This document shows, one piece after another, positions 2,400 to 36,074 of a stretch of 64,000 nt of DNA. Both the position numbers and the translations under genes were made by a program. The stretch is from the NCBI GenBank assembly GCA_035549015.1, contig DASZRW010000111.1, positions 4,609-68,608 of the forward strand, read 5' to 3'. Position 1 is the stretch's first letter. The number at the start of each line of letters is the position of its first letter. The notes under the pieces are model-generated. The model was not told where the DNA came from and did no database searches. It worked only from the letters and a program-made list of their open reading frames with translations. The DNA comes from Candidatus Kapaibacterium sp. GTDB lineage: Bacteria; Bacteroidota; Ignavibacteria; OLB7.

Positions 2400-2661
2400 G
2401 AGAGTTATGGGTGATGGGGTACGCATTTTTGAAATGCGGGCGCGATTATCCGCGCAACCCATGACTCGCAGCACCCATGACTCATAACCGAAAGCTTACG
2501 CACTCGCCTCGGCTGCGCTCCTGCTTCACATGTGCAGCCGACTATCGGCACCGGAAATTCGTTATCGCGTTCGGCGACGTCCCTCGTCTGTTCGGGGGAG
2601 CTTCAACGTCAACCAAGCCGGATCGAGCGGGTGAGCGGTGTAGGATAGGACACGATTATCC

Positions 2662-3231: not shown

Positions 3232-3234
3232 GCA

Positions 3235-3276
3235 CGGCCGGAGACGGATAGCGCGGCCGGAGACGGATAGCGCGGC
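3235..3276. repeat. 19-bp tandem direct repeat, 2 full copies plus a partial third (CGGCCGGAGACGGATAGCG)
   Basis: Units at 3235-3253 and 3254-3272 are identical, and a third starts CGGC. Begins 4 nt after the rplJ stop, in the rplJ-rplL spacer. Confidence 0.9.
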
Positions 3277-3402
3277 AGGGTAGTCCCGCAGGGATTCACC
3301 GGGGGGATGTGGATGCCGCATCATGCCGCCGCTCCCGTGCCGCGTGCACGCGAACATTGAAAACAGCAACATCGAACACGCTAAATCAGGAAAGAATCAA
3401 CA

Positions 3403-3780
3403 ATGGCTAACATCGAAGAACTGGTCGAAACGATCGGCAATCTTACCCTTATCGAAGCTTCGGAGCTGAAGAAGGCTCTCGAGGACAAGTTCGGTGTCAC
3501 GGCCGCCGCCCCGATGATCATGGGCGGTCCGGTTGCCGCTGCTCCGGCTGCTGCAGCCGTTGAGGAGCAGACCGAGTTCACGGTCGAGCTCACCGACGGT
3601 GGCGCATCGAAGATCAACGTGATCAAGGTGGTTCGCGAGATCACCGGCCTTGGCCTGAAGGAGGCGAAGGATCTGGTTGAAGGCGCACCGAAGCCGGTGA
3701 AGGAGAGCGTCTCGAAGGAAGAGGCCGAGAGCCTGAAGAAGAAGCTCGAAGAGGCCGGTGCCAAGGTTTCGTTGAAGTAG
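3403..3780 (+). CDS. rplL: 50S ribosomal protein L7/L12
   Basis: 125 aa. Ala-rich hinge and C-terminal domain [32 protein letters not shown]. Confidence 0.97.
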
Positions 3781-3792
3781 GAACGCGCCCAT

Positions 3793-3836
3793 GCCCGGGG
3801 GCCGCGCGGCTTCACGTCGCGGCCGCCCGGGGCTTT
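3793..3836 (+). terminator. GC-rich hairpin + TTT (rplL-rpoB attenuator/terminator)
   Basis: GCCCGGGGGCCGCG pairs with CGCGGCCGCCCGGGGC (about 14 bp, two single-nt bulges) and is followed by TTTC. This is the classical place for a partial terminator between rplL and rpoB. Confidence 0.6.
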
Positions 3837-4356
3837 CAGGGTGTTCCGCTCTCACACCGCGCAGTTGTGAATCCGCCGTTTCGGCGAAAAAACGATCTCC
3901 CCGACGGTTCCCATGGCCGATTTTCGGAAAAGTGGTGGACGTCGGGGAGAATATCGCTATTTTCGCCAGCTACGTTGGGGGTAGATTGCCCGGGCAATAA
4001 CCCCCTCGTCGCTTCGTCGTTACGCTGAATCATCTGGAGTATCGTACGGCGTGCGTATGTTCGTTCTCAGACCGACAGCAAACGCAGTCTCAATCTCTGT
4101 GGCGCCGGAGACGATTCGCTCCATTTCTTCCAATCTGCTCATCTACGTCTATCAAACGCGTCCGCTGCGACACTTTGTGGATTCTTGACGGTTGTTCCGC
4201 CCCGAACGATCGTCAAGAATCCATTGTCGTCTCTTGATATAACGCTTCGTTCATCGGAAGCCGGCTGCCGAGGCCGGCATCCGGCTTCGATCGAAGCTGA
4301 CTGAGGTTGCAGTTCAGAGCAGATGCGAACCTTCCTTTCTGACCGGAGGTAACCAC

Positions 4357-8184
<3,828 letters not shown>

Positions 8185-8295
8185 GCCCGGAACTGCATGG
8201 AGCCCGAGCCCTGCCGGGGATGGCCCGGGGCGCGGGCGTGAAGACCGAGTGATTGAAATACGAAGTACTAACGATATATACATCGGGAGAAGACT

Positions 8296-12594
<4,299 letters not shown>

Positions 12595-15448: not shown

Positions 15449-17050
15449 ATGAGCAGCTCCCCTGATGCCTCGACGCTCGCTGCCGCAACGGGATCCAGGC
15501 CATGGATACTCGCAGCCACGATCATAGGCTCCAGCATGGCCTACATCGACGGCTCCGTTGTCAACGTTGCCATGCCGGTGCTGCAACGCGATTTCGGCGT
15601 GCGCATCGATCAGGTGCAGTGGGTCGTGGAGGCCTACACGCTCTTCGTCGCCTCGCTGATATTGATCGGAGGAACGCTCGGCGATCGTTACGGTCGCCGG
15701 CGCATCTACGCTGCAGGCGTTGCGCTCTATTCGATTGCGTCGGTATGGTGCGGGCTGGCGCCGAATGTGGATCAACTGATTCTTGCCCGCGTGCTGCAGG
15801 GGATCGGCGGCGCGATGCTGGTGCCGGGAAGCCTCGCAATCATCACCTCCTGCTTCTCCGATGAGGAGCGTGGCAAGGCGATCGGCACGTGGTCCGGACT
15901 CTCGGCCGTCTCCACGGCGATCGGCCCGCTGCTTGGCGGGTGGCTGGTGGACAACATCTCCTGGCGCGGCGTCTTCTTCATCAACGTTCCGCTCGGCGCG
16001 CTGGTGCTTCTGCTCCTCTACAGGCATGTTCCCGAGAGCAGCGACCCCGATGCGCCGAAGCGGCTGGACTGGACGGGCGCGGCTCTTGCGGCAACCGGGC
16101 TGGGCTCGCTGGTGTTCGGGTTGATTCAGGCGAACACACTCGGCGCCCGCAGTCCCATTGTTCTCGGCTCGTGCGGCGGCGGCATCCTGCTTCTGGCGGC
16201 CTTCATCTGGGTGCAGGCGCATACGGCCGCGCCGATGATGCCGCTCAAACTGTTTCGCTCGCGCGAGTTTGCCGCAACGAATATTCTCACGCTCCTGTTG
16301 TACGCCGCGCTGGGCGGCATGATGTTCTTTCTCGGATTCAATCTCATTCAGGTTCAGGGCTACTCCGCAACGGCAACGGGCGCGGCGCTGCTGCCGTTCA
16401 TCATCCTCATCTCCACACTCTCACGCTGGGCCGGAGGGCTTGCAACGCGCCATGGGCCGCGCCTTCCGCTGGTGCTCGGTCCCGTGGTTGCGGCGGGCGG
16501 ATTCGCACTCCTCACCCTTCCCTCACTGGGAGGCTCCTACTGGAGCACGTTTTTCCCCGGCATCGCGGGTGTGGGATTGGGCATGGCAATTACCGTGGCC
16601 CCGCTCACCGCCACCGTGATGGGCTCCGTTGCGCCTCATCATGCCGGCACCGCCTCCGGCATCAACAACGCCGTGTCGTGGCTTGCCAGCCTGCTCGCCA
16701 TCGCCCTGCTGGGCCTTGTCGCCGTGGACAGCTTTCGCGGGAAGCTGGAGACGGAGCTGATGCGCCGGCCGCTGAGCCAGGCATATCGTACTGCGATAGC
16801 AGGCCAGAGTGCCAAGCTCGCGCAGATCGAACTTCCGGCCGCGATGAGCAGGGAGGAGGCCGCGGCCGCGCATGCCGCGATCGACGTGGCATACATCGGA
16901 ACGTTTCGCATCGTGATGTTCTGGTGCGCCGGCCTTGCGCTCGCCAGCGGCCTCCTGGCCGGGGCGGTGCTGGGAACGGGCAAACGATTGAAGATCAATC
17001 AGCAGGAATCTGGAATCACGAATCAGGGACTACGAATTCCCCGTCCTTAA
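15449..17050 (+). CDS. MFS transporter, DHA2 (EmrB/QacA-like, 14-TMS) drug:H+ antiporter family
   Basis: 533 aa with many TM segments. N-terminal MAYIDGSVVNVAMPVLQRDFG and GGTLGDRYGRRR (MFS motif A). SD GGAGG upstream. Confidence 0.9.
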   Translation: MSSSPDASTLAAATGSRPWILAATIIGSSMAYIDGSVVNVAMPVLQRDFGVRIDQVQWVVEAYTLFVASLILIGGTLGDRYGRRRIYAAGVALYSIASVWCGLAPNVDQLILARVLQGIGGAMLVPGSLAIITSCFSDEERGKAIGTWSGLSAVSTAIGPLLGGWLVDNISWRGVFFINVPLGALVLLLLYRHVPESSDPDAPKRLDWTGAALAATGLGSLVFGLIQANTLGARSPIVLGSCGGGILLLAAFIWVQAHTAAPMMPLKLFRSREFAATNILTLLLYAALGGMMFFLGFNLIQVQGYSATATGAALLPFIILISTLSRWAGGLATRHGPRLPLVLGPVVAAGGFALLTLPSLGGSYWSTFFPGIAGVGLGMAITVAPLTATVMGSVAPHHAGTASGINNAVSWLASLLAIALLGLVAVDSFRGKLETELMRRPLSQAYRTAIAGQSAKLAQIELPAAMSREEAAAAHAAIDVAYIGTFRIVMFWCAGLALASGLLAGAVLGTGKRLKINQQESGITNQGLRIPRP

Positions 17051-19962: not shown

Positions 19963-21423
19963 ATGATGAAGCACGCTTCGACCTTTGTGTATGGTACCAT
20001 TGTGGTTCTGTTGACCGGCACCGTTGCGCTCTACTCGGCACGGCGCTCCGCCGGCAATGCGCGATTGCTGATACTGCCGGCAGGCGTTGCACCGGCATCG
20101 GCGGAGGCGGGGGAGCAGAACGGGGGTGGCGCCGGAACGGTTGCCAACGAGAGCCGCCATGCATTCGGCCGGGCGCCGATGAACCTGGCGGAGTTCGATG
20201 CGCGCTGGCCCATCTTTCGTTCGGGCAAACTGCTGTTCGACAGAAACTGGGGGCTTGCAACGCACGATGCCGCGGGCGGCCCGCCCGGCCCGACACCTCT
20301 CGGGCCGGTCTATGATGCGGTATCATGCGCCGGATGCCACGTTCGCGACGGGCGCGGCCACCCTCCCTCATCAGCCGACGAGATTCCCGAGACGATGGTT
20401 GTTCGCCTCAGTGTGATGACCGCGCACGGATCGGTGCCTCATCCGGTATACGGCCGCCAGCTTGGCTACTATCGCACCGACGGGAAGCCCGGGGAAGGAA
20501 CGGTGAGTGTGTCGTACGTGGAGGTGAGCGGCGAATTCGCAGACGGCACGCCGTACACGTTGACGAAGCCGGTGTACGCCTTCGACCACATGGCGTACGG
20601 ACCGATCGGGGAGCGGACGATGTACTCGCCCCGGGTTGCACAGCCGATTGCCGGGATCGGGTTGCTTGATGCGATTCCTGCAGCGGCGATTCTCGCGCAT
20701 GCCGATCCGGATGACCGGGATCACGACGGCATCTCCGGCCGTCCGAACTATGTGACTGACGAGCGCACCGGCCAGACCATGCTTGGCCGTTTTGGATGGA
20801 AGGCCAACCAGCCGACGGTGGAGCAGCAGGTTGAGAATGCCTTTCAGTTCGACATCGGCATCATGCCATCGCATCCTGCGAGCGACGGCGCGTACGGTGG
20901 CGCGGCGAAGGACGGTGGCACGGCGAAGGACGTGACGCCGGAGATTACCGACGCGGAGTTGCGGAGCGTCTCGTTCTACACGCGGCTGGCGGCCGTCCCG
21001 GCACGGCGCGGCTGCAACGACCGTACGGTGCTGCGCGGAAAGGGGATCTTCCATGCCGTCGGCTGCGCGGGCTGCCATGTGCCGTCGTACACCACCGGTG
21101 CTGTTGACGGGCTGCCGGAGCTGACGCATCAGACGATCTTCCCTTACACCGATCTCCTTCTGCACGACATGGGAGCCGAGCTTTCCGACAACCGGCCGGA
21201 CGGGCTGGCCGGCGGCGCCGAGTGGCGTACGCCGCCGCTCTGGGGGATCGGCCTCACCGCCGTAGTGAGCGGGCATACGCGGTTCCTGCACGACGGCCGG
21301 GCGCGAAATCTGGAGGAGGCAATTCTATGGCATGGCGGCGAAGGAGCCGGCGCGCGCGATCTCTACAAGCGTCTTCCTCGCGACGATCGCGCGGCGCTGA
21401 TCGCATTCCTGACGTCGCTGTAG
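19963..21423 (+). CDS. di-haem cytochrome c oxidoreductase, DUF1111 family
   Basis: 486 aa. N-terminal TM/signal, two CxxCH motifs (CAGCHVRDGRG, CAGCHVPSY) and C-terminal RFLHDGRARNLEEAILWHGGEG, typical of DUF1111. Confidence 0.85.
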   Translation: MMKHASTFVYGTIVVLLTGTVALYSARRSAGNARLLILPAGVAPASAEAGEQNGGGAGTVANESRHAFGRAPMNLAEFDARWPIFRSGKLLFDRNWGLATHDAAGGPPGPTPLGPVYDAVSCAGCHVRDGRGHPPSSADEIPETMVVRLSVMTAHGSVPHPVYGRQLGYYRTDGKPGEGTVSVSYVEVSGEFADGTPYTLTKPVYAFDHMAYGPIGERTMYSPRVAQPIAGIGLLDAIPAAAILAHADPDDRDHDGISGRPNYVTDERTGQTMLGRFGWKANQPTVEQQVENAFQFDIGIMPSHPASDGAYGGAAKDGGTAKDVTPEITDAELRSVSFYTRLAAVPARRGCNDRTVLRGKGIFHAVGCAGCHVPSYTTGAVDGLPELTHQTIFPYTDLLLHDMGAELSDNRPDGLAGGAEWRTPPLWGIGLTAVVSGHTRFLHDGRARNLEEAILWHGGEGAGARDLYKRLPRDDRAALIAFLTSL

Positions 21424-21501: not shown

Positions 21502-24500
21502 TTACGCCTCCTCCCACTGCATGCTGAGCCGGCTGGCCTCGGCGCGCCGGCCAAGAAGAACCAGGATGCTCTTCAGGCGCTCCGCGATCTCCTCATCGCC
21601 CGGCATCGATTCCAGCGCATGCCGGAGCAGCTCCTCCGCGCCGCTGGTATCACCGGCGTGCTGCAACTGCGTTGCCAGCCGCAGTACCAGCGACCGGATG
21701 CGCGTCTCGAACTCCTCGCGCAATCCCTCGAACAACTCATCGTACAGGCCGGGGAAGGGGATCTCGCCGTTGGCGATGCGGAGCGCCTCGAGCAGCGCCT
21801 CGTTCGCGCGCGGAAGAAGCGCCTCGCGCATTGCCTCGTCTGCGGCATTCATTGCCGCATGTGCATCCAGCAGATCCACCTGCACGCGCACGGTATCCAA
21901 CTGCGGCTTCCCACCACGGGTATCGATGGCATCGTGGTGCAGGAGATCGCGAAGGCGATGCACGCTTACGTTGATCGTGTTCCGTGCACCGTCCGGATCG
22001 CGCTCCTCGCCTGCAGCCCATGCCTGAAACTCGCGCGGCGTCAGCGGCTTCTTCAACATGCGATCGGCCACCAGCACGCCGAGCAACGTTCTGATGCGTG
22101 CGCCTCGCGGCCGCACCACCTCGCCCCCCGATGGCTTCACTTCGATCGTTCCGAACATCGAGAGCTTCACCACCGATTCGGTCTCCCGTTCGTGCGGTTC
22201 GGCCTGCACGCGGGGACGTTCCTGGGACCACTCGCTCCATTGCGCAAGTGTCGATGTATCCACGTGCCCCGCGCCGTAGTTCAGGAGCGGCGCGATGTAC
22301 GCATACAGTCCGCGTTCGATGAACCATGTGCCGATCGATTCCACCATGGCGCCGATCTCCAGCGTTGCGGCAGTCGCGAGGTCCCATCCGCGCTCGCGCA
22401 GCGCGATGTTCGCCGCGTGGAGAACGATCAATGGATCCAGCATGTGCCGCATGCGGAGGCGCATGCGCAGGCAGCGCTCCCGTACCGCGGCCGCGGCCCG
22501 CTCCATGGTTGAGCCGGGATCAAGCACATCGGCCAGGAACGCCATGATACCGTCCTCGGCGAAGCTATCCTTCTCCAGACTTCCGGCCATTGTGAGAACG
22601 CGCTCCGCAGAGTCCTCGCTGGCAAGGAGGAGGAACAGGCCGATGATCTGCGCTCCCGCGGAGAGCGGAGTATCCGCCATGCGCACGGGGTGTTCGCCTA
22701 TCCATCGATACTCGCCGCGCAGCAACGCCGCCAGTGCCAGCTCATCGTCGCAGTTGGAGCGGAACACCTGGCGCAGGTGCGGAGGACTGTGCTGGATAAG
22801 CGCCTCCAATGCCGTGCGGACGTCGTTCAAGTCGGCGCCGGAGGCAACCTCGCCGATCATGTACAACAGCCGGCAGTTGGTCGCCATGCCGGGGAGTCCC
22901 ATCTCCTCCAGCTTGCGGGCGGCAACGAGCGTCTGCTCGCGGATCTCGCTCAGCCGCCCGATCTCCGCCATGAAGTTCACGATGTGCATGCGCGTGCCGG
23001 ACGTGATGCGATCCTCGTCCGCGATGAGCGCGGCAACCGCGCGGCGCCGCTGGTCAACCTCCTCCGGGGTCTCGAACAGCTGCAGCATGCAGCCGGCCAT
23101 GTCGTTCATGATGATCTGCCGCCGCTCGTCGTCCAGCAACACCCCTTCCCTGATCTCGTTCCAACGATTCTCCACCAGGCGCAGCGTACGAACGTCGGAG
23201 AGCCCCTCGGCGATGTAGGCCACATCGCGGAGATAGAGCACGTGGCTCCGGTGGTACCGGACGTCGCTCCATCGCTCCACGATCTGCTGCACCTCGTTCC
23301 ACGTTTCGGGCGACATCGCGCTTTCGCCTCGTGCCGGATCGCGCTGCCGGTAGACGAATGCCAGTGCATGAATTCGGTCCGCTCCCTCCGCGGGGGTGGC
23401 CGGGTTGGCGGTCAGCTCCAGGAGCTCGTTCAACTGGCGGCTGAACTGCTCGGTGAACACGTTGCGGCGTTGAAGCCGGAGCTGGCAGCCGAGCACATCG
23501 ATGCGGAGCGCGCGCGCCCCGGGATCGCCGGCCGGCGAAACCGAATCGCGCAGTATGCGCGCGCCGCACGCCGCGATGCGCTGGGCCTTGCGCCAGTCAG
23601 CCGTTGCATCGAGCATGTTTGCGATGTCCAGCGTCCTCTGAATCGCATCGGCCATCAGCTCGTTGAACGGACCGGGATCGCTGCGGCTCTCCTCCAGAAG
23701 CAGGAACGGCTGGGTGGAATAAAGCGGAAGCCCGGTGCCGATCACCCTGACGAGAAGACTCGCGTCCACATCGGCGCGATCGATGAAGTAGTGATGCAGG
23801 AGCGTGTGCGTGTAGGCGAGCAGCGGGTCCGTGCTGCGAATCCTGCCAAGCACCGCAACGGGCGTGTCCGTATGTGCGATGATGCCCTTGGTGATAAGAC
23901 GAAGAAGATCGGCCTCGTCCACGATTGCCGCCGCCGTCTCGTGAGCGAACACCTCGCCGAGCACGGCCAGCCGCTCCGCGGCGATTCGTTCCTCGGGAAG
24001 CAGGTGGGCGATCATTCCCTCGGAAAGGATCTTCATCGCAGGACCGATCATCTGTTCGATCGGAACATTGCTGCGCGGGTTGTCGCCGGGTTCGGCATCA
24101 TCGAACAGCCCGAAGCGGAGCGCGCTGCGGAGCGCCGAACGGAGTGCGAGAGGGTTGCCCGTGGTAACGGCGTGCAGTTCCAGGGCAAGCGCCGGACTCG
24201 CGATGTGCCCCATGTTTGCGATCATCGCGCGGATCTGTTCGGGGGTCAGGCCGCCCAGCGTCATGCGATGCGTGATCACATCATCCACTACCGGCGCTAT
24301 CTGAAGTTCCACCGGCCGTGCCGTGAGGATGCAGAGGATCTGTTCCTCCACGAGCCGCGAAAGGAGCCGCTGCGTCTCCGCCCTGTTCTCCGCCGCAAGC
24401 AGATGCACGTCCTCGATCACCACCAGTGTGCGACGGACGCGCGCAACGCGGCCGATCGCATGCGCAACGGCGTCGATGGTTCGATCATCCGCGATGCGTG

Positions 24501-24798
24501 CTGCCGGGAGGTTGAGCGAGAGCTGCCAGAGCGCATGAACGAGCGGCTCCACGAGCGATGTGGACGACTCCGGATAGAGCTTTACCTGTATCACGGAGCC
24601 GCGCAGCAGTGAGACACGCCGGGCGAGTTCCTCCATCAGCCTGCTCTTGCCGATTCCCGCCTCTCCGCTCAGCAACAGAGCCAGCATGCCCGGCGCATCA
24701 TCTGTGGCTCGCCACAGGTCCACCAGGTTCTGCAATTCCGAGTCCCTGCCGACAAACGGCAGTGCGGCGTTCTGTGTAACGGCGCGTAGCGTTTCCAT
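21502..24798 (-). CDS. large P-loop NTPase (AAA_16/STAND-like) regulator with C-terminal winged-helix + BTAD (SARP-type) module
   Basis: 1098 aa. Walker A SGEAGIGKSRL, Walker B LVVIEDVHLL, a long helical middle. C-terminus FGTIEVK...RIRTLLGVLV...VSVHRLRDLL...VDLLDAH...ELLRHALESMPGDEEI matches the SARP layout. Confidence 0.85.
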   Translation of the reverse strand: METLRAVTQNAALPFVGRDSELQNLVDLWRATDDAPGMLALLLSGEAGIGKSRLMEELARRVSLLRGSVIQVKLYPESSTSLVEPLVHALWQLSLNLPAARIADDRTIDAVAHAIGRVARVRRTLVVIEDVHLLAAENRAETQRLLSRLVEEQILCILTARPVELQIAPVVDDVITHRMTLGGLTPEQIRAMIANMGHIASPALALELHAVTTGNPLALRSALRSALRFGLFDDAEPGDNPRSNVPIEQMIGPAMKILSEGMIAHLLPEERIAAERLAVLGEVFAHETAAAIVDEADLLRLITKGIIAHTDTPVAVLGRIRSTDPLLAYTHTLLHHYFIDRADVDASLLVRVIGTGLPLYSTQPFLLLEESRSDPGPFNELMADAIQRTLDIANMLDATADWRKAQRIAACGARILRDSVSPAGDPGARALRIDVLGCQLRLQRRNVFTEQFSRQLNELLELTANPATPAEGADRIHALAFVYRQRDPARGESAMSPETWNEVQQIVERWSDVRYHRSHVLYLRDVAYIAEGLSDVRTLRLVENRWNEIREGVLLDDERRQIIMNDMAGCMLQLFETPEEVDQRRRAVAALIADEDRITSGTRMHIVNFMAEIGRLSEIREQTLVAARKLEEMGLPGMATNCRLLYMIGEVASGADLNDVRTALEALIQHSPPHLRQVFRSNCDDELALAALLRGEYRWIGEHPVRMADTPLSAGAQIIGLFLLLASEDSAERVLTMAGSLEKDSFAEDGIMAFLADVLDPGSTMERAAAAVRERCLRMRLRMRHMLDPLIVLHAANIALRERGWDLATAATLEIGAMVESIGTWFIERGLYAYIAPLLNYGAGHVDTSTLAQWSEWSQERPRVQAEPHERETESVVKLSMFGTIEVKPSGGEVVRPRGARIRTLLGVLVADRMLKKPLTPREFQAWAAGEERDPDGARNTINVSVHRLRDLLHHDAIDTRGGKPQLDTVRVQVDLLDAHAAMNAADEAMREALLPRANEALLEALRIANGEIPFPGLYDELFEGLREEFETRIRSLVLRLATQLQHAGDTSGAEELLRHALESMPGDEEIAERLKSILVLLGRRAEASRLSMQWEEA

Positions 24799-25444
24799 GC
24801 GACAATTGATTCGATGCTCGCCCGATTCTCGTCATGCGTTCCGGATTGGCGGCGCAGTGCGGATTCCGGATCGAATATCCGGCTTTACGGGCGAACGTCC
24901 ATGATAAAAGAGATGGAACTCCGGAGAGATGGTCAGTTGCCGGCAACGGTGCGGGTGGCGGACCGGTTATCAGCCATTGTTCCGCAACTGTAAGCACGGT
25001 AGTTCGCGACTGCAAGCGCTGGGGGACCAATCGTAAGCGCGATGCCGTACATTGTACAACGAAGATCAACGCTGCGAAGATGAACATAACCCTCGGCGGC
25101 GTTGCTTGTTACGCGTGGCGTCCCCAGCGCCAGTGCCATGCCCCCACGTCCGTTGAAACGCTAGCCATTCGGATCGATTCGCGAACCCGTTGAATGCAGG
25201 TGCGCCGCGTGCAGGTGTGCATGGTGCATCGGCCGGGAGGGAATCACCGGACGTCTGTGGGGTGATCGTACTGGAACCACAACCGGTTCATAGACACTCG
25301 GATCAACAAACCATAACGACGGCGAGGCATCGCCATGCGCTGTGCCGTGCAACGGGAAAATTCTGTCATTCCCCGTCTGCATGCATCGCGTTGGCCGTGC
25401 ATTGACCGGACACTGTATCATTGCAATTCGGGAGAGGAAAGAAA

Positions 25445-27310
25445 ATGATTGCAGGTATGCATCGCATCGTTCGCAGAACCGTGCTTCTGCTGGCGGTCAC
25501 CATTGGCTTCGCGGCTGCGGCCGGGGAGTTGCACGGGCAGGGTTTCCAGGATGTGTATGGCTCCAGTCCATGCCGTGAGGCTGGGCGTGGAGGCGTGCTG
25601 CAGCTGCCGGGCGGCGGATATATCGCCGTGGGAGAGACGTTCATCGCGCCAACCGGAGCGTGCGGCACATCCGATATCTATATCGTGCGGACGAATGCGA
25701 ACGGCACGAACTTCTGGTCCGGGACGTACAACATCGGCGGCAACGATTCGGCAACCAGCGTGATTCTCAGCGCGCTGAATCCGAACGTCATCTACGTGTG
25801 CGGCGTCACGCAGAACCTCGGCGGATCGTGCGTGGTTTCGCGCGACGGCTTCATCATGCGTGTGGATATCACAACGGGTGCGGCCGTTGCGTTTACGTTC
25901 GGTTCCAACCGCGACGAGATCTTCTATGATATCGTGGAGGCAACCGGTGGGGACAATGTCACCACGCATGCCGGCGATCTCATCGCCGTCGGCTCCACCA
26001 CGAACGCATCCGGCACCGGCCGCGACGGCTACATCGTGCGCGTCACGGCCGGGCTCGGCATCATCTGGGGCCGTCAGTACGGCGGCACGGCGAGTGCGGA
26101 TGAGTATTTCCTCGGCGTCGCGGAGGCGCCGCTCAACTCGCCGCCGAACGTGGCTCCGGATATCGTGGCGGTTGGTGCAACCAACACCACCGGCGCCGGC
26201 AACTACGATGCATTGGTTGCGCGGGTCAGCGGCCAGAACGGTCTGGACGGCGCGGCGCCACAGAACATCGCGGTGTTCGGCGCCGCGCGGAACGAGGAGG
26301 CTCGCTCCGTCCGCCAGCTCCGGGTGGGTGCATCCGCCGGCACGCTCGCGGTGGTTGGATACAGCGACTCGCGGCCGGCCCCCAATGCCGGCCTGGAGAG
26401 CTTCCTGATGCGGCTGCAGGGCGACCCCTGCGGAACACCGATCTGCGAGCGCTACTTCGGCGACAATGCCAACGGTATCGACGGCGCCCGCTGCGTGCGT
26501 GAGGTGCCTGCCGGTGCGCCGGCGGGGATGACGCCGGGCAATCTCATCGTCACCGGCACCACGGCACTCGGCGGCGGCACCGTCACCGGCAACAACGTCT
26601 ACCTCGCCGAGTTCAGCGGATGCAGCCTCGTTACCGGCACCGAGGCCTACGGCGGCAACGGTTTCGACGAGGGATGGTCCGTCAACATCGCCACGCATGC
26701 AACCAGCAGTGAGACGCCGGGCTACATCATCTGCGGATACACGCAGAGCGCATCGCTGATCGGAGCCGATCCGCAGCAGCTCTATCTGATCAAGACCCGC
26801 ACCAACAAGCTGAGCGGTTGCAATGAAGTCGCCATTCTGTTCAGCGACGCGGCCGCGCAGTTCAGCCAGCACTGCATCGACATGGTGAACACGTCGCTCA
26901 CGCCGAACTGCGGCCGTTCAACGGCGCGCGTCCTGCTGAACATCTTCAATCAGCTCTGCTTCGCTCCGATGGCGCGGCAGGGAGACGGCGGAACCAGTGA
27001 CGGCGTTGCCGGCGTGGAGTCACCCTCCACAATCAGTCTCAACGCGCATTCGGCACGCTTCTATCCGAACCCGGTTACCGCCGGGGCGCCGATGAACGTG
27101 CGGTTCGAACTGCCGGTTGCCTCGCAGGTGACGGTGACGGTAAGCGATATCCTTGGCAACACGATCTACGGCAACACGGCGGCCTATGAGGCCGGCTCCG
27201 CGCTGCACGTGATCAACACGGCCGGATGGGCCAGCGGCAGGTACATCGTCAACATCTCCGCGCCGGGCACGACGCCGTACGCCACGGTGGTCTCCGTGGT
27301 AGGACGATAA
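25445..27310 (+). CDS. secreted repeat (beta-propeller-like) protein with T9SS C-terminal sorting domain
   Basis: ATG 25445 after GGAGAGG (the track ORF starts at 25421). Signal peptide MIAGMHRIVRRTVLLLAVTIGFAAAAG. Recurring D-[GI]-[YF]-I-[VM]-R strands. C-terminus FYPNPVTAGAPMNVRFEL...GRYIVNISAPG resembles a type A T9SS CTD. Confidence 0.85.
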   Translation: MIAGMHRIVRRTVLLLAVTIGFAAAAGELHGQGFQDVYGSSPCREAGRGGVLQLPGGGYIAVGETFIAPTGACGTSDIYIVRTNANGTNFWSGTYNIGGNDSATSVILSALNPNVIYVCGVTQNLGGSCVVSRDGFIMRVDITTGAAVAFTFGSNRDEIFYDIVEATGGDNVTTHAGDLIAVGSTTNASGTGRDGYIVRVTAGLGIIWGRQYGGTASADEYFLGVAEAPLNSPPNVAPDIVAVGATNTTGAGNYDALVARVSGQNGLDGAAPQNIAVFGAARNEEARSVRQLRVGASAGTLAVVGYSDSRPAPNAGLESFLMRLQGDPCGTPICERYFGDNANGIDGARCVREVPAGAPAGMTPGNLIVTGTTALGGGTVTGNNVYLAEFSGCSLVTGTEAYGGNGFDEGWSVNIATHATSSETPGYIICGYTQSASLIGADPQQLYLIKTRTNKLSGCNEVAILFSDAAAQFSQHCIDMVNTSLTPNCGRSTARVLLNIFNQLCFAPMARQGDGGTSDGVAGVESPSTISLNAHSARFYPNPVTAGAPMNVRFELPVASQVTVTVSDILGNTIYGNTAAYEAGSALHVINTAGWASGRYIVNISAPGTTPYATVVSVVGR

Positions 27311-28556: not shown

Positions 28557-28750
28557 AGTGTGCCGTTGGCACACCGGCATGTGCGGCGTTGCGCTCGGAC
28601 ATGGTGTCCGGAGAATCGATTCGGCGCCCGGCGGAAACCGGTTCGGCCCCGCTCGATAATCGCTGAGTCTATCTTGGTGCATCGACTGATCCGCCGGCCG
28701 GCGGATCGGCATCACGAGGAACTCAACCAACAGGAAAGGATATCCGGACA

Positions 28751-29176
28751 ATGAAGGACGAACAGGTGAATCTGGTTCGCGAGACGTTCGCAATGGTGTC
28801 GCCGATCGCGGAGGCGGCGGCCGGACTCTTCTACGGAAAGCTCTTCGAGCTCGATCCGAATCTTGCGCCGCTCTTCAAGGGGGCGGACATGAAGGAGCAG
28901 GGACGGAAGTTGATGGCGATGCTTGCCATGGTGGTTGCCGGGCTGGACCGCTTCGACGCGCTTCGGCCGGCCGTTGCGAATCTCGGCGCACGCCATGTGG
29001 AGTATCACGTCCGTCCGGAGGACTACAACACGGTTGGCGCCGCGCTCCTCTGGACGCTGGAGACCGGGCTCGGCGAGGCGTACACGCCGGCGGTTGCGGA
29101 GGCGTGGACGGCCGCATACACGGCGCTCAGCGGCGTGATGCTGGAAGCGCACGAGGCGAGCGTGATTGGGGCGTAA
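28751..29176 (+). CDS. single-domain globin (bacterial haemoglobin / sensor-globin-like)
   Basis: 141 aa. VNLVRETFAMVSPIAEAAAGLFYGKLFELDPNLAPLFKG...QGRKLMAMLAMVV...LGARHVEYHVRPEDYNTVGAALLWTLE is the standard globin helix pattern with a proximal His in GARH. Confidence 0.88.
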   Translation: MKDEQVNLVRETFAMVSPIAEAAAGLFYGKLFELDPNLAPLFKGADMKEQGRKLMAMLAMVVAGLDRFDALRPAVANLGARHVEYHVRPEDYNTVGAALLWTLETGLGEAYTPAVAEAWTAAYTALSGVMLEAHEASVIGA

Positions 29177-29566: not shown

Positions 29567-32500
29567 CTAACTCATCCCCTCCATCTCCGCCCGCATGCCG
29601 ATGCGGCGGGCCTCCGTGCGTTTGCCCAGCGAGACAAGGGCATCCTGCAGCAGCTCGGCGATCTCTTCGTCGTCCGGCATTGCCGCGAACGCCAGGCGCA
29701 GCACCTCTTCGGCGGCGGCTCCGTCTCCCTCGCGCTGCAGAGCGCGGGCAAGCCGGATGGTGGTGGCGCGGAGTTCGCTTTCGAAGTCCTCGCGCACGGC
29801 CTCGAAGAACTCGTCGTACAAGGTCGGGAAGGGGACCCTGCCGCCGCATATCGCCAGAGCGGCGAGCAGTTCCGGCAGAGCACGCACAAGCGCCCCCTCA
29901 CGCATCGCCTCCGTTGCGGCCGTGAGATGGCGGTGGGCGCGTATCAGGTCCACATCGACATGGGCAAGATCGAGCACCGGCGTCTCGCCGGCGGTGGAGA
30001 TGGCATCGGTGCTCAGCAGTTCGCGAAGGCGGAACACGGCGAAGTTCACGGACTTGCGCACGCTGTCCGGGTCGCGCTCGGAGCCGAAGACGATGGATGC
30101 GAACTCGTTCGCGGAGAGGGGCTTTGCCAGCATGTGGTCGGCGGCCATCAGGCCAAGCATGGTGCAGAGCTGCGTGCCGCGAACGCGCACCGGCTCCTCC
30201 TGTCCGGCCGCCTGTACGGTGATGGTGCCGAGGAGCGAGACATGCAGTTGCTGTTCCGCCGTGGAGCTTGCACGTTCCTCGTCGCGCTGGCGTGAAAGGG
30301 CTGCGACCGCGGCGCGCCAGGCGCGGATCTCCGCCTTCGTGAGGATCTGTTCGAAACGATCCACGATCACCCGCATCACCGCGGGGAGCGAACGGCCGTT
30401 CAACCATTCCAGCATCGCGATCACGCTGTTGTGAACGAACTGCTCCACGGATGCGCCGAAGCGCAGGTCCGGATGTTCCAGATCGATCGCGTCGACGAGT
30501 TCGATCATCGCGCGGTGATGAATCAGATCGTCAACCATCAGCAGCTCGCGGGCGAGGAGCGCCCGCACCGTCTGCCGCGCCGGTTCGAGGCCGGCGGCCG
30601 GATCCATCAGCAGCGCGAGCGGCGCCTTGAAGTGCGCGATCTCCTGCGCTCCGTTCTCCATTGTCTCGCGGAGCGATTCTATATCCGCGGTGATCACCTC
30701 CAGAAGGAGGCGGCGATCGGCAAGCATCGGGGCCTCGTTGCCGTACAGCATCTGATAACGCCGTGCATGTTCCCAGTCACCAAGCAGAAGCGCGGCGCCG
30801 GCAAAGTGCGGGCCGATGATGCTCTTCGCCTGCTGTCGTGCGATCTCCGGTATCATCTCCATCAAAGCGCCGATCTGATCGTCTGCAAGCGTCGCCGTTC
30901 CGCCGATCACCATCTCCGAGAAGATGCGCATGATGGTGCTGCTGAAGATCTCCATCTGCATCCCCAGCTCACGGTATACCGGCAGCATCTCCTCGTGGAA
31001 CGCGATGCAGCGGTCGAACAGTCCCGATTGGAACAGACGCTCCTGCTTGCAGATGGCGAGCACCGTATCCTCGCGCGCGGCCACGGCCTCCAGCTCCGAG
31101 AGCTCGCGCAGGCGCGCGGCAAGCTCCTCCGACGACTCGGCCACGTTCAGGAAGAAGGGGGTGATCGTGAGCCATGCCTGGAAGCGTATGGCCTCCGTAG
31201 TGGCGGGATCATCCAGGAATGCGCGGAGCAATGCCTCCACCTCGCGCAGCCGCACCTGGTGATTGAGAATCTTGGCTGCCTCCGCGGACTCCCGCAGATG
31301 GCTGATATAGGGGCGTGTGTTGCGGAGTTCCGGAAACTGGCTGGCAATCGATTCCACTTCGCTCCACGCATCGAGGCAGGCCGAGGGATCCACGCGCTTC
31401 AACTGCCGGCGGCGATACACGATCGCGCGCAGGCGGAGCAGGCCCCAGGCGCTGTTCCCCGGATTCTCCGTGAGCGCCATCAACCGCTCAACCCGTTCCC
31501 CGTAGTCGTCCCGGCGCAGGCGGCGCTGGATGGTGAGATGGTTGATGATGATGAGCGCCTGCAGCTCCCTGCGGCGTTCCTCCGGCCAGCGCCCGGCGGC
31601 ATGTCCGGCCAGCGCGTCCGGCACGTTCATCACCGTGGTGGTTCGATGCCAGTTGGAGCTCCGGTCCAGCACCGACGTGATGACGAAGATGCGCTCGATC
31701 GCCTGTGCGATCTCCTCCGGATCGGCCGTCACTTCGTGAGCGCGTGCCTCCAGGAGCGGGAAGGGAATGAGGGAGTAGAGCGGGTACTTCGCCGCGAGGA
31801 TGCGCACCATCATGTCCGCGTCGAACCGGCCGCGATCGGCGAAGTGCCGGTGGAGCAGCGAATGCGTGAATGCAAGCGGTGCGCTCTCGCTCTGCGTGTC
31901 GGTGATCGGCAGCGGAGGGGAGGCGCTCGTGGTGATGATGCCCTTGAACGTCAGCATCTCCAGAATGGTCTCCGCCTCGGCGAGCGCCGCCTGTGCCGTC
32001 TCGCGCGCGAACACCTCCCCGAGCATTGCAAGCCGTTCGGCCGCTTCCTTCTCGCGCTCGGTGAGGTGGGCCACCATCCCTTCGGAGAGGAGGCGCACAT
32101 TCCGCTCCAACGCGCGCACGAAGGCGTTCTGATCGATCATGACTCCGGAGCCGTTGCGCGGCCCGGCTCCCGGGGAACCGGTACGGAGCGCGCCGCGGAG
32201 CGCCGAACGGAGCGCCAGCGAATTTCCCGTGGTTCGTTCGCGCAGCGTCTGCACGATCTCCTCGCGCACCTGCTCGCCGAAGATGGAGCGGCAGAGGAGG
32301 GCGATCTCCGTCTCGGAGAGTCCGTGCAGCGTGATCTCGTCAACCAGGTAGCGCTCCAGCACCGCGCGTGCAGGCGTCTGGACCGGACGCGCAGTGGCGA
32401 GCAGGGAGAGCGGTTCATCGGCAAGGCGATCCAGAATGGCGGCGAAGTCCGGAACGGCGTCGGGGGGAAGCAGATGCAGATCCTCCACGATCACCAGCGT

Positions 32501-33028
32501 GGGGCGGAGGCTGGAGATACGGAGCAGCGCGGCGGCCACGCCCCCCATCGTCTCCTCCGGCTCCGTCTTGAGCAGGTGGCTGGCGGTTGCCGACCGGGTC
32601 AGCGCCCGCGCAAGCAGCGGCGCGATCGATGTGCCGGCATCCGGATAGAGCTTTGTCTGCACCACCGTGCCGCCGGCGTTGGCGATGCGCGGCGTGATCT
32701 CCTCGATCAGCCGGCTCTTGCCGATGCCTGCCTCACCGGAGACGATCATGGCACGGAGGCCGGGGGAATCCGACGTCTCCCCCCAGAATCGAGCAATGCG
32801 CTCCGCCTCCTCGCTGCGGCCAACGAAGGGGAGAAGCCCGTGGTTCAGGAAATCGATCTGCGAACGCTGCATCTGGGGGAGGAATTCCTTCGGTTCACCG
32901 GCCGATAATCGCTTCGGGGTTGGGAGATAATCGCTCGGAATATATTGAAATCGCTTCTGTGATGAACTCTCATACCCCGCAGGGCGTACCGGAGAGATCG
33001 CACTGCGAGAGATATCATGAGCAATCAT
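29567..33028 (-). CDS. large P-loop NTPase regulator with C-terminal winged-helix + BTAD (SARP-type) module, paralog of 21502-24798
   Basis: 1153-aa ORF. Walker A SGEAGIGKSRL, Walker B LVIVEDLHLL, C-terminal LLGTITVQ...VFRLRELL...VDLIRAH...EVLRLAFAAMPDDEEI. Aligning it to the paralog suggests the true start may be ATG 32872 (MQRSQIDFLNHGLLPFVGRS). Confidence 0.85.
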   Translation of the reverse strand: MIAHDISRSAISPVRPAGYESSSQKRFQYIPSDYLPTPKRLSAGEPKEFLPQMQRSQIDFLNHGLLPFVGRSEEAERIARFWGETSDSPGLRAMIVSGEAGIGKSRLIEEITPRIANAGGTVVQTKLYPDAGTSIAPLLARALTRSATASHLLKTEPEETMGGVAAALLRISSLRPTLVIVEDLHLLPPDAVPDFAAILDRLADEPLSLLATARPVQTPARAVLERYLVDEITLHGLSETEIALLCRSIFGEQVREEIVQTLRERTTGNSLALRSALRGALRTGSPGAGPRNGSGVMIDQNAFVRALERNVRLLSEGMVAHLTEREKEAAERLAMLGEVFARETAQAALAEAETILEMLTFKGIITTSASPPLPITDTQSESAPLAFTHSLLHRHFADRGRFDADMMVRILAAKYPLYSLIPFPLLEARAHEVTADPEEIAQAIERIFVITSVLDRSSNWHRTTTVMNVPDALAGHAAGRWPEERRRELQALIIINHLTIQRRLRRDDYGERVERLMALTENPGNSAWGLLRLRAIVYRRRQLKRVDPSACLDAWSEVESIASQFPELRNTRPYISHLRESAEAAKILNHQVRLREVEALLRAFLDDPATTEAIRFQAWLTITPFFLNVAESSEELAARLRELSELEAVAAREDTVLAICKQERLFQSGLFDRCIAFHEEMLPVYRELGMQMEIFSSTIMRIFSEMVIGGTATLADDQIGALMEMIPEIARQQAKSIIGPHFAGAALLLGDWEHARRYQMLYGNEAPMLADRRLLLEVITADIESLRETMENGAQEIAHFKAPLALLMDPAAGLEPARQTVRALLARELLMVDDLIHHRAMIELVDAIDLEHPDLRFGASVEQFVHNSVIAMLEWLNGRSLPAVMRVIVDRFEQILTKAEIRAWRAAVAALSRQRDEERASSTAEQQLHVSLLGTITVQAAGQEEPVRVRGTQLCTMLGLMAADHMLAKPLSANEFASIVFGSERDPDSVRKSVNFAVFRLRELLSTDAISTAGETPVLDLAHVDVDLIRAHRHLTAATEAMREGALVRALPELLAALAICGGRVPFPTLYDEFFEAVREDFESELRATTIRLARALQREGDGAAAEEVLRLAFAAMPDDEEIAELLQDALVSLGKRTEARRIGMRAEMEGMS

Positions 33029-33340
33029 TCAGAGACCGATCCAGATACGAACGCCGGAAGGCCGGCCGATGATACCGATGAAACGCCTCTGCGCTGCGGT
33101 GCCTGCCTGGCATTCGGCTACCGGGACGACAAGTACTGCGCCTGCTGCGGCGCCCCCCTTCGCCGGCTGTGCCGGGAGTGCGGCGCGGCGGTCCTGCAGC
33201 CGGTGGCGTTCTTCTGCACCCAGTGCGGCGCCCGCCTGAGCGGCGACGATGCCGATGCACGCGGCGGCATGCACCGGGAGAAAATTTCGTCTGGGGACGA
33301 ACGCGGCCGCGCTCAGCGCGACCGCCACACCACCACATGA
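33017..33340 (+). CDS. double zinc-ribbon protein
   Basis: 107 aa with four CxxC pairs (CGAC, CACC, CREC, CTQC) spaced as two zinc ribbons. The flanks are low-complexity Asp/Arg-rich. Its first 12 nt overlap the longest-ORF start of the divergent regulator. Confidence 0.55.
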   Translation: MSNHSETDPDTNAGRPADDTDETPLRCGACLAFGYRDDKYCACCGAPLRRLCRECGAAVLQPVAFFCTQCGARLSGDDADARGGMHREKISSGDERGRAQRDRHTTT

Positions 33341-34406: not shown

Positions 34407-36074
34407 ATGTTCAGACCAAAGCTGCTTACCACACTGCGCGACTACAGTCGTGGCCAGTTCCTTCGCGACATCGGCGCCGGCGTCATCGTCGGCATCGTGG
34501 CACTGCCGCTGGCGATAGCGTTCGCCATCGCCAGCGGCGTATCGCCGGAGAAGGGATTGATCACGGCCGTGATCGCCGGCTTCCTGATCTCGGCGCTCGG
34601 TGGGAGCAGGGTGCAGATCGGAGGACCGACCGGCGCGTTCGTGGTGATCATCTACGGCATCGTCCGGCAGTACGGTGAGGGGGGCCTCGCGATCGCCACC
34701 ATCATGGCCGGCATCCTGCTGGTGATCATGGGCGTTGCCCGACTCGGGGCGCTGATCAAGTTCATTCCGCATCCGGTGATCGTGGGGTTCACGAGCGGCA
34801 TTGCCGTCGTGATCTTCTCCTCGCAGATCAAGGACTTCCTGGGGCTGCAGATGGGGCCGGTCCCGTCGGAGTTCTTCGACAAGTGGCGGGAGTATGTTCT
34901 TCATCTCTCAACGATCAATCCGGAGGCTCTCGCGGTGGCCGCGGGGTCGCTCCTGATCATCGTGTTCTGGCCCCGTATCTCGCGCCGCGTACCCGCGCCG
35001 TTGATCGCCCTGCTTGCGGCCACTGCCGTGGTGCAGTTGTTCTCCCTTCACGTGGAAACCATCGGGTCGCGATTCGGAGCGATCCCCTCCTCGATCCCGA
35101 CCCCCTCCATTCCGCAGATCGATCTGGCCACCATCAAGACGTTGTTCGGCCCTGCCCTCACCATCGCGCTCCTCGCCGCCATCGAGTCGCTTCTCTCGGC
35201 AGTCGTGGCCGACGGCATGATCGGCGGCAAACATCGCTCCAACACGGAGTTGATAGCGCAGGGGATTGCGAACATGGCCTCGCCGCTCTTCGGCGGAATA
35301 CCGGCCACCGGAGCGATTGCCCGCACGGCAACCAACATCCGGAACGGCGGCCGTACGCCGGTGGCGGGGATCGTGCACGCCGTTGTTCTTCTGCTGTTCA
35401 TGCTGCTGCTCGGCAGATGGGCAACGCTGATCCCGCTGCCATGTCTCGCCGCGATACTCGTTGTGGTGGCCTACAACATGAGCGAGTGGCGCTCCTTCAG
35501 GGCAATGATCAGGAGCCCGCTCAGCGATGCCGTGGTCTTCGTTCTGACATTCGTCCTGACGGTTGCGATCGATCTCACGGTTGCGATCGAGGTGGGGATG
35601 GTGCTTTCGATTCTTCTGTTCATGCGGCGGATGGCGATGGTGACCAATGTGGGGGTGATCACGCGGGAGTTGAACGATGAGGATGGCGATGACGAAGCGC
35701 AGGCGGTGGCGGCGCTCCAGATGCCCGGCGTGGAGATCTACGAGATCAACGGGCCGCTCTTCTTCGGAGCCGCCTACAAGTTCGCCGAGGCGATGAATGT
35801 TGTGGAGTCCGGGCCGACCGTGCGTGTGATACGGATGCGCAACGTGCCGGCGCTGGATGCAACCGGCCTGCATGCGCTGCGCGATGCGTGGGAGCAGTTG
35901 CGCAAACGCGGCGGGCAGCTTGTGCTTGCGGAGATTCACGCCCAGCCGCTCACGGCGCTGGAGAAGGCCGGCCTCGATGTAGAGATCGGCAGCGAGAACG
36001 TTCACGGCACACTGGAGGGGGCGCTGGCCCGTGCAGCGACGCTGACAGGTGGGGGAGGGAGCGGCCGGAAGTAG
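34407..36074 (+). CDS. SulP family inorganic anion transporter with C-terminal STAS domain
   Basis: 555 aa. N-terminal LRDIGAGVIVGIVALPLAIAFAIASG, many TM helices, C-terminal STAS (VRVIRMRNVPALDATGLHAL). Confidence 0.92.
   Translation: MFRPKLLTTLRDYSRGQFLRDIGAGVIVGIVALPLAIAFAIASGVSPEKGLITAVIAGFLISALGGSRVQIGGPTGAFVVIIYGIVRQYGEGGLAIATIMAGILLVIMGVARLGALIKFIPHPVIVGFTSGIAVVIFSSQIKDFLGLQMGPVPSEFFDKWREYVLHLSTINPEALAVAAGSLLIIVFWPRISRRVPAPLIALLAATAVVQLFSLHVETIGSRFGAIPSSIPTPSIPQIDLATIKTLFGPALTIALLAAIESLLSAVVADGMIGGKHRSNTELIAQGIANMASPLFGGIPATGAIARTATNIRNGGRTPVAGIVHAVVLLLFMLLLGRWATLIPLPCLAAILVVVAYNMSEWRSFRAMIRSPLSDAVVFVLTFVLTVAIDLTVAIEVGMVLSILLFMRRMAMVTNVGVITRELNDEDGDDEAQAVAALQMPGVEIYEINGPLFFGAAYKFAEAMNVVESGPTVRVIRMRNVPALDATGLHALRDAWEQLRKRGGQLVLAEIHAQPLTALEKAGLDVEIGSENVHGTLEGALARAATLTGGGGSGRK

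Follow-up and report, generated by a model that had tools for sequence, protein, structure and literature searches.

An ATPase-first regulator family of Kapabacteria/Bacteroidota-type genomes with a predicted SARP module at the C terminus

The stretch of Candidatus Kapaibacterium sp. DNA analyzed here (64 kb, hereafter the window) carries two related genes, p1 and p2, that raise the question of how a DNA-binding unit of the SARP type would work at the far end of a STAND-class nucleoside triphosphatase (NTPase). What is known of SARP units comes almost entirely from actinomycete antibiotic regulators, in which they are N-terminal modules; for STAND transcription factors that have their output at the C terminus, the studied cases are LuxR-type proteins (MalT/LAL). 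The p1 gene lies at 21502..24798 on the minus strand (stop codon 21502-21504; open reading frame (ORF) and translation) and encodes 1098 residues; P0001, an ortholog of equal length, is 91% identical. Both ORFs are on the minus strand at the positions that an initial annotation, made from the letters alone, had given, and all the motifs it had quoted are present in the translations, at the NTPase end (LPFVGR, SGEAGIGKSRL, LVVIEDVHLL / LVIVEDLHLL) as well as at the C terminus (FGTIEVK / LLGTITVQ, VSVHRLRDLL / AVFRLRELL, VDLLDAH / VDLIRAH, MPGDEEIAERL / MPDDEEIAELL). The paralogy it had claimed was borne out by a collinear alignment along the whole length (~1100 residues, 34.7% identity, E 1.5e-157), but the extent of the paralog, given as 29567-33028, probably has to be shortened. 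That interval is the longest p2 ORF (1153 aa, minus strand, open up to 33028); the true start is most likely Met53, at ATG 32872, judging from the family N-terminus (M-x-x-x-IDFLNHG-LPF-GR) and from a 1101-aa gene call in L081, a relative at 91% identity that was used for the comparison of synteny and repeats. From this probable start, p2 spans 29567..32872 on the minus strand and encodes 1101 residues. No third family copy was found in the window by tblastn.

Is the C terminus really a SARP unit, as its winged-helix and BTAD layout had suggested by eye? When a profile built from 34 family C-termini (A1) was compared with the SARP domain of AfsR (8hvr), profile positions 5-221 matched AfsR 24-236 with an E value of 3.9e-7, and the alignment covered both the winged helix and BTAD. 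BTAD was matched at E <= 0.01 by 23/34 of these C-termini (best 1e-7), and a precomputed PF03704 annotation is present on several homologs. The AlphaFold2 (AF2) model of the module (predicted local distance difference test score (pLDDT) 94.6, predicted template modeling score (pTM) 0.89) has strands and helices in the order of a winged helix and, after these, seven helices. In a Foldseek search of the PDB, its six top matches were all AfsR (8k60, 8hvr) or EmbR (2fez, 2ff4), with template modeling (TM) scores of 0.61-0.67 over 224-232 columns and E values of 1e-7 to 1e-5, and the matches below them were all generic TPR proteins with TM about 0.3. A single-sequence PDB search with the last ~238 aa gave no relevant match, and a Pfam search gave no LuxR/GerE (PF00196) match in p1 or p2 at E <= 1. 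Because the evidence from the A1 profile, from BTAD in 23 of the 34 C-termini and from AF2 and Foldseek holds at the level of the family, we regard the identity of the p1 module as settled at that level: as judged from profiles and modeled structure, the C-terminal 225 aa (residues ~875-1098 of 1098 in p1, about nt 29570-30262 in p2) are a genuine SARP unit, composed of an OmpR-type winged helix and BTAD.

The winged helix-turn-helix of p1, as delimited by the profile-to-AfsR alignment, AF2, and Foldseek, comprises residues 877-974 (21877..22170, minus strand) with a recognition helix at 935-953 (ARNTINVSVHRLRDLL). BTAD, a helical, TPR-like activator domain, follows at residues 975-1098 (21505..21876, minus strand), as placed by the BTAD matches, the AfsR alignment, and Foldseek. 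In a 50-sequence alignment of the family (A2), G899 and R950 of the winged helix are invariant and R901 and R939 nearly so; BTAD has an invariant F-P-x-L-Y motif at 1015-1019, and its invariant residues are F1015, P1016, L1018, E1024, and R1027. The residues of AfsR that contact DNA include R92 and R94 (PMC11301090), and in the A1 alignment with AfsR these two align to p1 R948 and to R950, which does not vary in the family, while AfsR R87 aligns to a conserved Asn (N943). The positions aligned to AfsR T88, Y89, and S91 differ among the paralogs, as expected for specificity-determining residues. We infer that the module binds DNA at the candidate repeats described below.

At the other end of the protein, residues 1-370 of p1 (23689..24798, minus strand) form a STAND nucleotide-binding/oligomerization module, as assigned from Pfam, the alignment, and Foldseek. 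The AAA_16/STAND NTPase that had been proposed there was readily recovered: Pfam AAA_16 (cut-off 32.6 bits) is significant at both N-termini, with 48.5 bits in p1 (residues 14-149) and 45.8 bits in p2, and AAA_22, NACHT, nSTAND6, and NB-ARC are weaker, sub-threshold matches. From NCBIfam only a kinase/cyclase fusion model matched, and that partially, in its AAA_16 portion. With motifs named and defined as in the established STAND literature, p1 has an hhGRExE-like motif (FVGRDSE, residues 15-21), Walker A (GEAGIGKS, residues 45-52, nt 24643-24666), Walker B (VVIED, residues 125-130), sensor-1 (R161-P162), a GxP motif (G214-N215-P216), and the winged-helix histidines H331/H335. Since these signatures (G-R at 17-18, GEAGIGKS, E129-D130, R161-P162, G214-N215-P216, and H331/H335) are invariant or nearly so in A2, the nucleotide switch looks intact. 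The full-length AF2 model of p1, built on A2 (pLDDT 85.8), has an alpha/beta NTPase core followed by helical and winged-helix subdomains (secondary structure at residues 202-345) that reach to about residue 370. Its best Foldseek folds are STAND proteins, namely the archaeal STAND-TPR protein 6mfv, Avs3, Apaf-1, CED-4, MalT, and plant NLRs; PDB sequences searched with a full-length profile yielded no informative match to the NTPase part. By analogy with known STAND proteins, p1 and p2 would be expected to oligomerize in an ATP-driven, nucleotide-dependent manner.

Between the two ends, residues ~380-865 (22204..23661, minus strand) form an all-alpha, TPR/solenoid-like repeat region, as seen by DSSP of the AF2 model, and this region is presumed to be the sensor. 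No Pfam repeat family scored above threshold in it, and a low-confidence linker at 864-874 joins it to the SARP module in the full-length model. The middle had been described as helical and about 600 aa long; the AF2 model has helices only, but the length is about 490 aa, because the helical and winged-helix subdomains of the STAND module are counted with the NTPase.

How does this architecture compare with known regulators? The initial annotation had called it a permuted SARP arrangement, and the order is indeed opposite to that of classical SARPs, but the picture of a circularly permuted AfsR is probably not the right one. As far as the sequences tell, an output-domain swap in a MalT/LAL-type STAND protein would fit better, since the NTPase scores AAA_16 (48.5 bits) and not NB-ARC (16.8 bits, below the cut-off). 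Like MalT/LAL proteins, p1 and p2 have an AAA_16-type STAND switch with helical and winged-helix subdomains, then a helical-repeat sensor and, at the C terminus, a DNA-binding output; both kinds are of similar size (~900-1100 aa), the structural matches include MalT (8bob), and ligand-gated, ATP-dependent oligomerization that delivers DNA-binding domains to repeated sites is presumably shared. They differ from MalT/LAL in that the output is an OmpR-type winged helix plus BTAD rather than a LuxR/GerE helix-turn-helix, in that a significant MalT sequence match was absent in the PDB profile search, and in that the family hosts are Kapabacteria/Bacteroidota-type metagenome-assembled genomes (MAGs).

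With AfsR and other large SARPs (SARP - NB-ARC - TPR), the p1/p2 proteins share all three kinds of module, and the SARP unit of AfsR is the nearest solved structure and sequence match, with its DNA-contact arginines conserved. In contrast to p1 and p2, AfsR carries its SARP unit at the N terminus (consistent with PMC11301090); their NTPase is AAA_16 rather than NB-ARC by score, the identity of the SARP units is about 20%, the phylum is another one, and the apparent site spacing is 22 nt as against adjacent grooves. Direct repeats are bound by AfsR as well, and its NOD switch relies on a histidine (PMC11301090; bioRxiv 10.64898/2026.09.02.748808). EmbR of Mycobacterium tuberculosis, a SARP unit plus FHA, has the same winged helix and BTAD fold (TM 0.65-0.67 over 230-232 columns) and likewise a regulatory domain fused to the SARP unit, but its SARP unit stands at the N terminus, and regulation is by an FHA domain that reads phosphopeptides instead of by a STAND NTPase. 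To our knowledge, the SARP unit is N-terminal in all four Streptomyces SARP classes. SARP-AAA_16 proteins also combine a SARP unit and an AAA_16-type ATPase in one polypeptide; in P0089, a distant match of this kind, BTAD (109-227) precedes AAA_16 (264-433), and because this is the classical SARP-first order, the SARP-last order of the p1/p2 family is unusual. The same combination is found in the SARP-LAL hybrids, the fourth of the Streptomyces SARP classes after small, medium, and large, and these hybrids are mostly tied to biosynthetic gene clusters (PMC12224297). The p1/p2 host differs from those of the SARP family in not being an actinomycete, and its neighboring genes encode transporters, type IX secretion system (T9SS) cargo, a globin, and a di-heme oxidoreductase (DHOR).

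We searched 1.84 billion representative proteins with a hidden Markov model of the C-terminal profile. There were 341 matches at E <= 1e-30 (representative clusters at 50% identity), 468 at E <= 1e-10, and 8001 at E <= 1e-3, the last presumably including ordinary SARPs. In the 150 best matches the SARP module ended at the C terminus without exception (150/150) and the modal length was ~1100 aa; shorter entries look like fragments. A homolog search gave 88 proteins of ~1100 aa that aligned end to end. The NCBI label of family members is 'AAA family ATPase', and the COG-based pipeline of JGI labels some of them 'DNA-binding SARP family transcriptional activator'. We found no literature on this ATPase-first/SARP-last family, nor on a C-terminal SARP unit or on BTAD proteins in these phyla. 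The family is thus coherent, uncharacterized, and of modest size, and is partly recognized by automatic annotation; to the question of whether the architecture might be common and already characterized, the reply is that about 341 clusters share it and that no characterization was found in the literature.

The named members come from MAGs labeled Kapabacteria, Chlorobi, Bacteroidota, Ignavibacteria, and Armatimonadota, and two proteins of the window carry T9SS C-terminal sorting domains, as expected for a bacterium of the FCB group; an FCB-like host had also been proposed at the outset. The window is chromosomal, with rpoB and rpoC at 4357-12594, and its sequence was present only in soil DNA metagenome runs. 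In the assembly labeled Armatimonadota (JADZEY; L005, L096), SusC/SusD-like genes stand beside the family regulator, which suggests that this bin is really Bacteroidota/Kapabacteria-like or mislabeled.

In a neighbor-joining tree the paralogs split deeply into many clades, and p1 and p2 fall in separate ones. The window and L081 have two family copies each, 4.8 kb apart; there are also two in L095 and at least three in one Kapaibacterium MAG. The tandem pair at L082 consists of P0004 (a homolog 35% identical, from another genome) and P0027, and the same clade make-up is found on a 22.2-kb contig with P0044 and P0023, which hints that the P0004/P0027-type pair is old and maintained. At L082 the pair (2655-9863) is followed by an AddB-like helicase-nuclease gene; at L093, the second paralog type only (P0022) lies ahead of an AddB-like gene. 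Further loci were sought by a scan of genome contigs, in which the generic Walker A pattern dominated and only 5-6 of 80 loci truly belonged to the family, and by a metagenome scan with a reduced alignment (A4), which gave 7 loci, 2 of them with usable upstream DNA.

Which DNA might these modules recognize? Upstream of p1, a candidate operator at 24985..25040, on the coding strand of p1 (minus), consists of three 13-nt direct repeats, GCGCTTACGATTG, GCGCTTGCAGTCG, and GTGCTTACAGTTG, whose spacings are 21 and 22 nt and which lie 187-242 nt ahead of the ATG. Nothing else in the 64 kb matches their consensus exactly, and they are kept in L081, although the spacers between them diverged. The CTTACG core recurs at 22-nt spacing upstream of P0071 (L098) and of P0004 (L082), where GTCTTACGAT occurs twice, 22 nt apart, 55-85 nt before the start. 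The candidate p2 operator (32883..32955, minus strand) is made up of AGCGATT starting at 32955, 32935, and 32913 and a degenerate AGGAATT at 32889, with 20/22/24-nt spacing; the array ends 10 nt before ATG 32872 and is identical in L081. GATTAY repeats akin to those of p2, 22 nt apart, lie upstream of the family genes of L095 and L096. The direct repeats of p2 fall inside the 52-codon extension of its longest ORF. Just downstream of the p1-type repeats, L081 has an expanded 7-nt microsatellite, (GGTCAGT)n, at ~9770-9830 (compared with ~24960 of the window) and, further upstream in the same intergenic region, a separate ~129-nt insertion; the window has neither.

The repeats were then counted across the family, whatever their sequence, as 10-nt direct repeats that differ at no more than one position, at spacings of 9-60 nt, in 18 family upstream regions from independent loci. 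One spacing stood out sharply in the histogram, 22 nt (9 pairs, from 7/18 regions), while all other spacings had 0-2 pairs each except for 4 pairs at 11 nt; 8-mer repeats peaked at 11, 22, and 33 nt. A 22-nt pair was present in 3/89 control upstream regions (other ORFs of the same loci), two of the three being family genes missed by the filter, and in 14/770 tiles of all loci (Fisher p about 1e-4). In a prospective check of three new loci, L098 had TCTTACG twice at 22 nt, with the same core as p1 and L082, L097 had a weak pair, and L099 had none. CTT[AG]C[AG] pairs at 21-23 nt occurred in 3/21 family upstream regions as compared with 4/1818 tiles. These counts suggest that the 22-nt repeats are SARP-like, putatively autoregulatory operators; the triplet of p1, at 21/22 nt, is a weaker instance of the pattern. 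In addition, L092 carries, 110-166 nt upstream of P0066, an 11-nt unit in five tandem copies (TTGCTTGATCT; 5834-5890), which could be an operator of 11-nt period or a microsatellite.

We hypothesize that p1 and p2 are cytoplasmic one-component STAND-class regulators with the module order of MalT/LAL and a SARP output, a proposal that, taken with the mechanism that follows, we lean towards on balance. In the resting state the protein would be ADP-bound and closed. Binding of a ligand or partner to the helical repeat region would permit ADP/ATP exchange in the N-terminal module, leading to oligomerization, and a winged-helix histidine would act as the switch residue, like in AfsR and other NLRs (bioRxiv 10.64898/2026.09.02.748808). 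Oligomerization would gather the C-terminal SARP units on one face of the DNA, where they would bind direct repeats two helical turns (22 nt) apart, or 11 nt apart in some paralogs, and BTAD would contact RNA polymerase so that transcription is activated. SARPs and OmpR-type domains bind same-face direct repeats, and the BTAD of AfsR contacts RNA polymerase (PMC11301090); by analogy, we would expect activation rather than repression by p1 and p2. Distinct paralogs would recognize distinct repeat sequences. Because the clearest candidate sites are upstream of the regulators' own genes, autoregulation is predicted, and the neighboring genes for T9SS-sorted proteins, a globin, and a zinc-ribbon protein would be further candidate targets. 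We also put forward, with more doubt than conviction, the broader idea of an ancient, multi-paralog family of STAND-gated activators in Kapabacteria/Bacteroidota-type soil bacteria, with a C-terminal SARP unit and autoregulation of each paralog through 22-nt repeats, in which adjacent pairs (P0004-type with P0027-type, p1 with p2) may work together.

The p1/p2 family brings a SARP-type output to a new position and a new phylum, with STAND and SARP combined the other way round, and offers a natural experiment on the STAND control of a SARP unit tethered at the opposite end. If true, the broader idea would place a SARP activation mechanism outside actinomycete secondary metabolism and in a different promoter and sigma architecture, the promoters and housekeeping sigma factors of FCB-group hosts being unlike the actinomycete model. 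The predicted operators make the regulators directly testable, and a few hundred protein clusters labeled only 'AAA family ATPase' gain an annotation. The practical impact will be modest until the signal or regulon is found, and the biology follows known principles.

Several observations weigh against the proposed STAND-SARP activator. Of the significant Pfam matches that the initial annotation had expected, AAA_16 was found, but in the last ~220 aa of p1 the SARP module was recognized only through the family profile and the structure model: on the single p1 sequence Trans_reg_C has 14.9 bits (cut-off 26.2; E 0.028) over 25 recognition-helix residues and BTAD is not above its cut-off (22.1 bits), which the C terminus of p2 just misses with 21.2 bits. 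Read literally, the refuting condition stated at the outset, the lack of a significant Trans_reg_C or BTAD match in this part, has a borderline outcome. The promoters and sigma factors of Bacteroidota-type bacteria are unlike actinomycete ones, so that the contacts of BTAD with RNA polymerase are not simply transferable, and AfsR protomers sit on adjacent major grooves (11 nt) as against 22 nt here. The repeats of p1, at ~190-240 nt from the ATG, are far for a class II-like activator site unless the leader is long; a sigma-70 scan of the p1 upstream region gave one weak match, upstream of the repeats, which says little about a Bacteroidota-type promoter. The 22-nt spacing had already been noticed when it was put to the test, and a permissive presence/absence test with 8-mers (21-23-nt repeats, family against controls) gave p = 0.37, the signal emerging only with the stricter 10-mers or as the share of pairs at multiples of 11 nt. 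About 40% of family upstream regions show 22-nt repeats, and their sequences differ between paralogs; a single operator consensus for all paralogs (GYGMTTAY or RCGATT) fitted six regions and 0/7 held-out ones and was rejected.

The non-significant 8-mer test and the fact that only about 40% of family genes carry the repeats speak for a reading in which p1 and p2 regulate transcription but the 22-nt repeats are chance or the sites of another factor, the targets then being the neighboring genes (T9SS, globin, double-zinc-ribbon (DZR)), possibly under repression. Genes with a T9SS tail and DZR genes do recur beside family genes, a p2-type motif is found upstream of the globin gene too, and the p2 repeats, reaching to ~10 nt from the start codon, could equally block RNA polymerase. 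We nevertheless consider this explanation unlikely, although it deserves to be taken seriously, since the 10-mer peak falls exactly at 22 nt and has no counterpart in controls, every repeat lies on the strand that encodes the regulator, the CTTACG core appears at 22 nt in three different clades, and the repeats are conserved while the spacers vary. Another explanation is that the SARP-like unit has lost DNA binding and serves as a TPR-like protein-interaction or dimerization module of an ATPase scaffold that is no transcription factor. Trans_reg_C was passed at E 0.01 by 0/34 family C-termini, BTAD itself is TPR-like and also matches TPR_19, and the identity to AfsR and EmbR is only about 20%. 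This explanation is improbable: the winged helix is modeled with high confidence and aligns with the DNA-binding domain of AfsR, few stretches are as well conserved as the recognition helix (R939, L949, R950; consensus ARKxxNxxVxRLRE), the arginines that contact DNA in AfsR are retained, and the COG-based pipeline calls members SARP DNA-binding activators.

A further interpretation would make the proteins STAND/NLR-like immune or conflict sensors of the Avs kind, whose helical repeats sense a phage or foreign protein and whose C-terminal module is an effector or a DNA-targeting device. Avs3 ranked second in the full-length Foldseek search, there are several divergent paralogs per genome, and one relative has a gasdermin-protease gene two genes away. 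The Avs3 likeness, however, is that of the shared STAND core (TM 0.22), and the effectors of known Avs proteins are N-terminal. Over its full length, the fold of the C-terminal module matches transcription factors only. The best PADLOC match was mad8 (E 2.8e-4), over 40 P-loop residues only; no enzymatic or pore-forming effector domain was found in the Pfam search; and the p1 gene is chromosomal, 9 kb from rpoBC, with synteny kept in a relative. We therefore hold an Avs-like role to be improbable, and we retain the STAND-gated regulator with a SARP output as our working model.

What, then, surrounds the regulator genes? There is no conserved operon across the family loci, and no biosynthetic gene cluster around p1 or p2 is evident among the annotated neighbors. 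In the window, a gene at 25421..27310 (plus strand), divergent from p1 and syntenic in L081, encodes a 629-aa T9SS-sorted protein (Por_Secre_tail, from Pfam) and is a possible target of p1. It is followed by a 168-aa ORF and then by the gene of a 141-aa globin (28751-29176, plus strand; Pfam Globin 60.8 bits), which lies between the paralogs, is also syntenic in L081, and is convergent with p2. On the opposite strand from the globin gene and ~90-140 nt upstream of it are two tentative p2-type sites, 44 nt apart (28611..28664, minus strand): AGCGATTATC (28655-28664), an exact copy of the p2 repeat whose counterpart in L081 is almost the same (AACGATTATC), and ATCGATTCTC (28611-28620), a related copy. 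From their sequence they are weak candidates for additional p2 targets.

Divergent from p2, at 33017..33340 (plus strand), is the gene of a small DZR protein (Pfam DZR 27.8 bits), and the layout from p1 to this gene is retained in L081. The 52-codon extension of the longest p2 ORF (32872-33028) shares 12 nt with the beginning of the DZR gene. Divergent DZR or Zn-ribbon genes also lie by family genes in L081 (1354-1677), L096 (5296-5553), and L098 (3600-3842), and the regulators of L096 and L098 belong to clades other than that of p2. Because the DZR gene is divergently paired with regulators of at least three different clades, it may be a functional partner or conserved target of the family regulators. 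T9SS-tail genes flank family members in L091, L092, L094, L097, and L099, a raw count over these loci. The T9SS-sorted proteins by the regulators are large and often rich in Ig-like domains; the window has genes for such proteins at 25421-27310 (plus strand) and 42281-45763 (minus strand). The family may control T9SS-secreted surface proteins together with small zinc-ribbon partners.

The remaining annotated neighbors in the window are the DHOR gene (19963-21423, plus strand), which is convergent with p1, an MFS transporter (15449-17050, plus strand), a SulP/STAS sulfate permease (34407-36074, plus strand), and a 971-aa HEAT-repeat protein (36264-39179, minus strand). At two other loci, genes of a different kind are found near family members: one member is followed, two genes further downstream, by the gasdermin-protease-family gene mentioned above (10388-11821 of L094), and another has a gene for a thiol-activated cytolysin (15097-15333 of L092) in its vicinity. 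Both neighbors may be coincidental.

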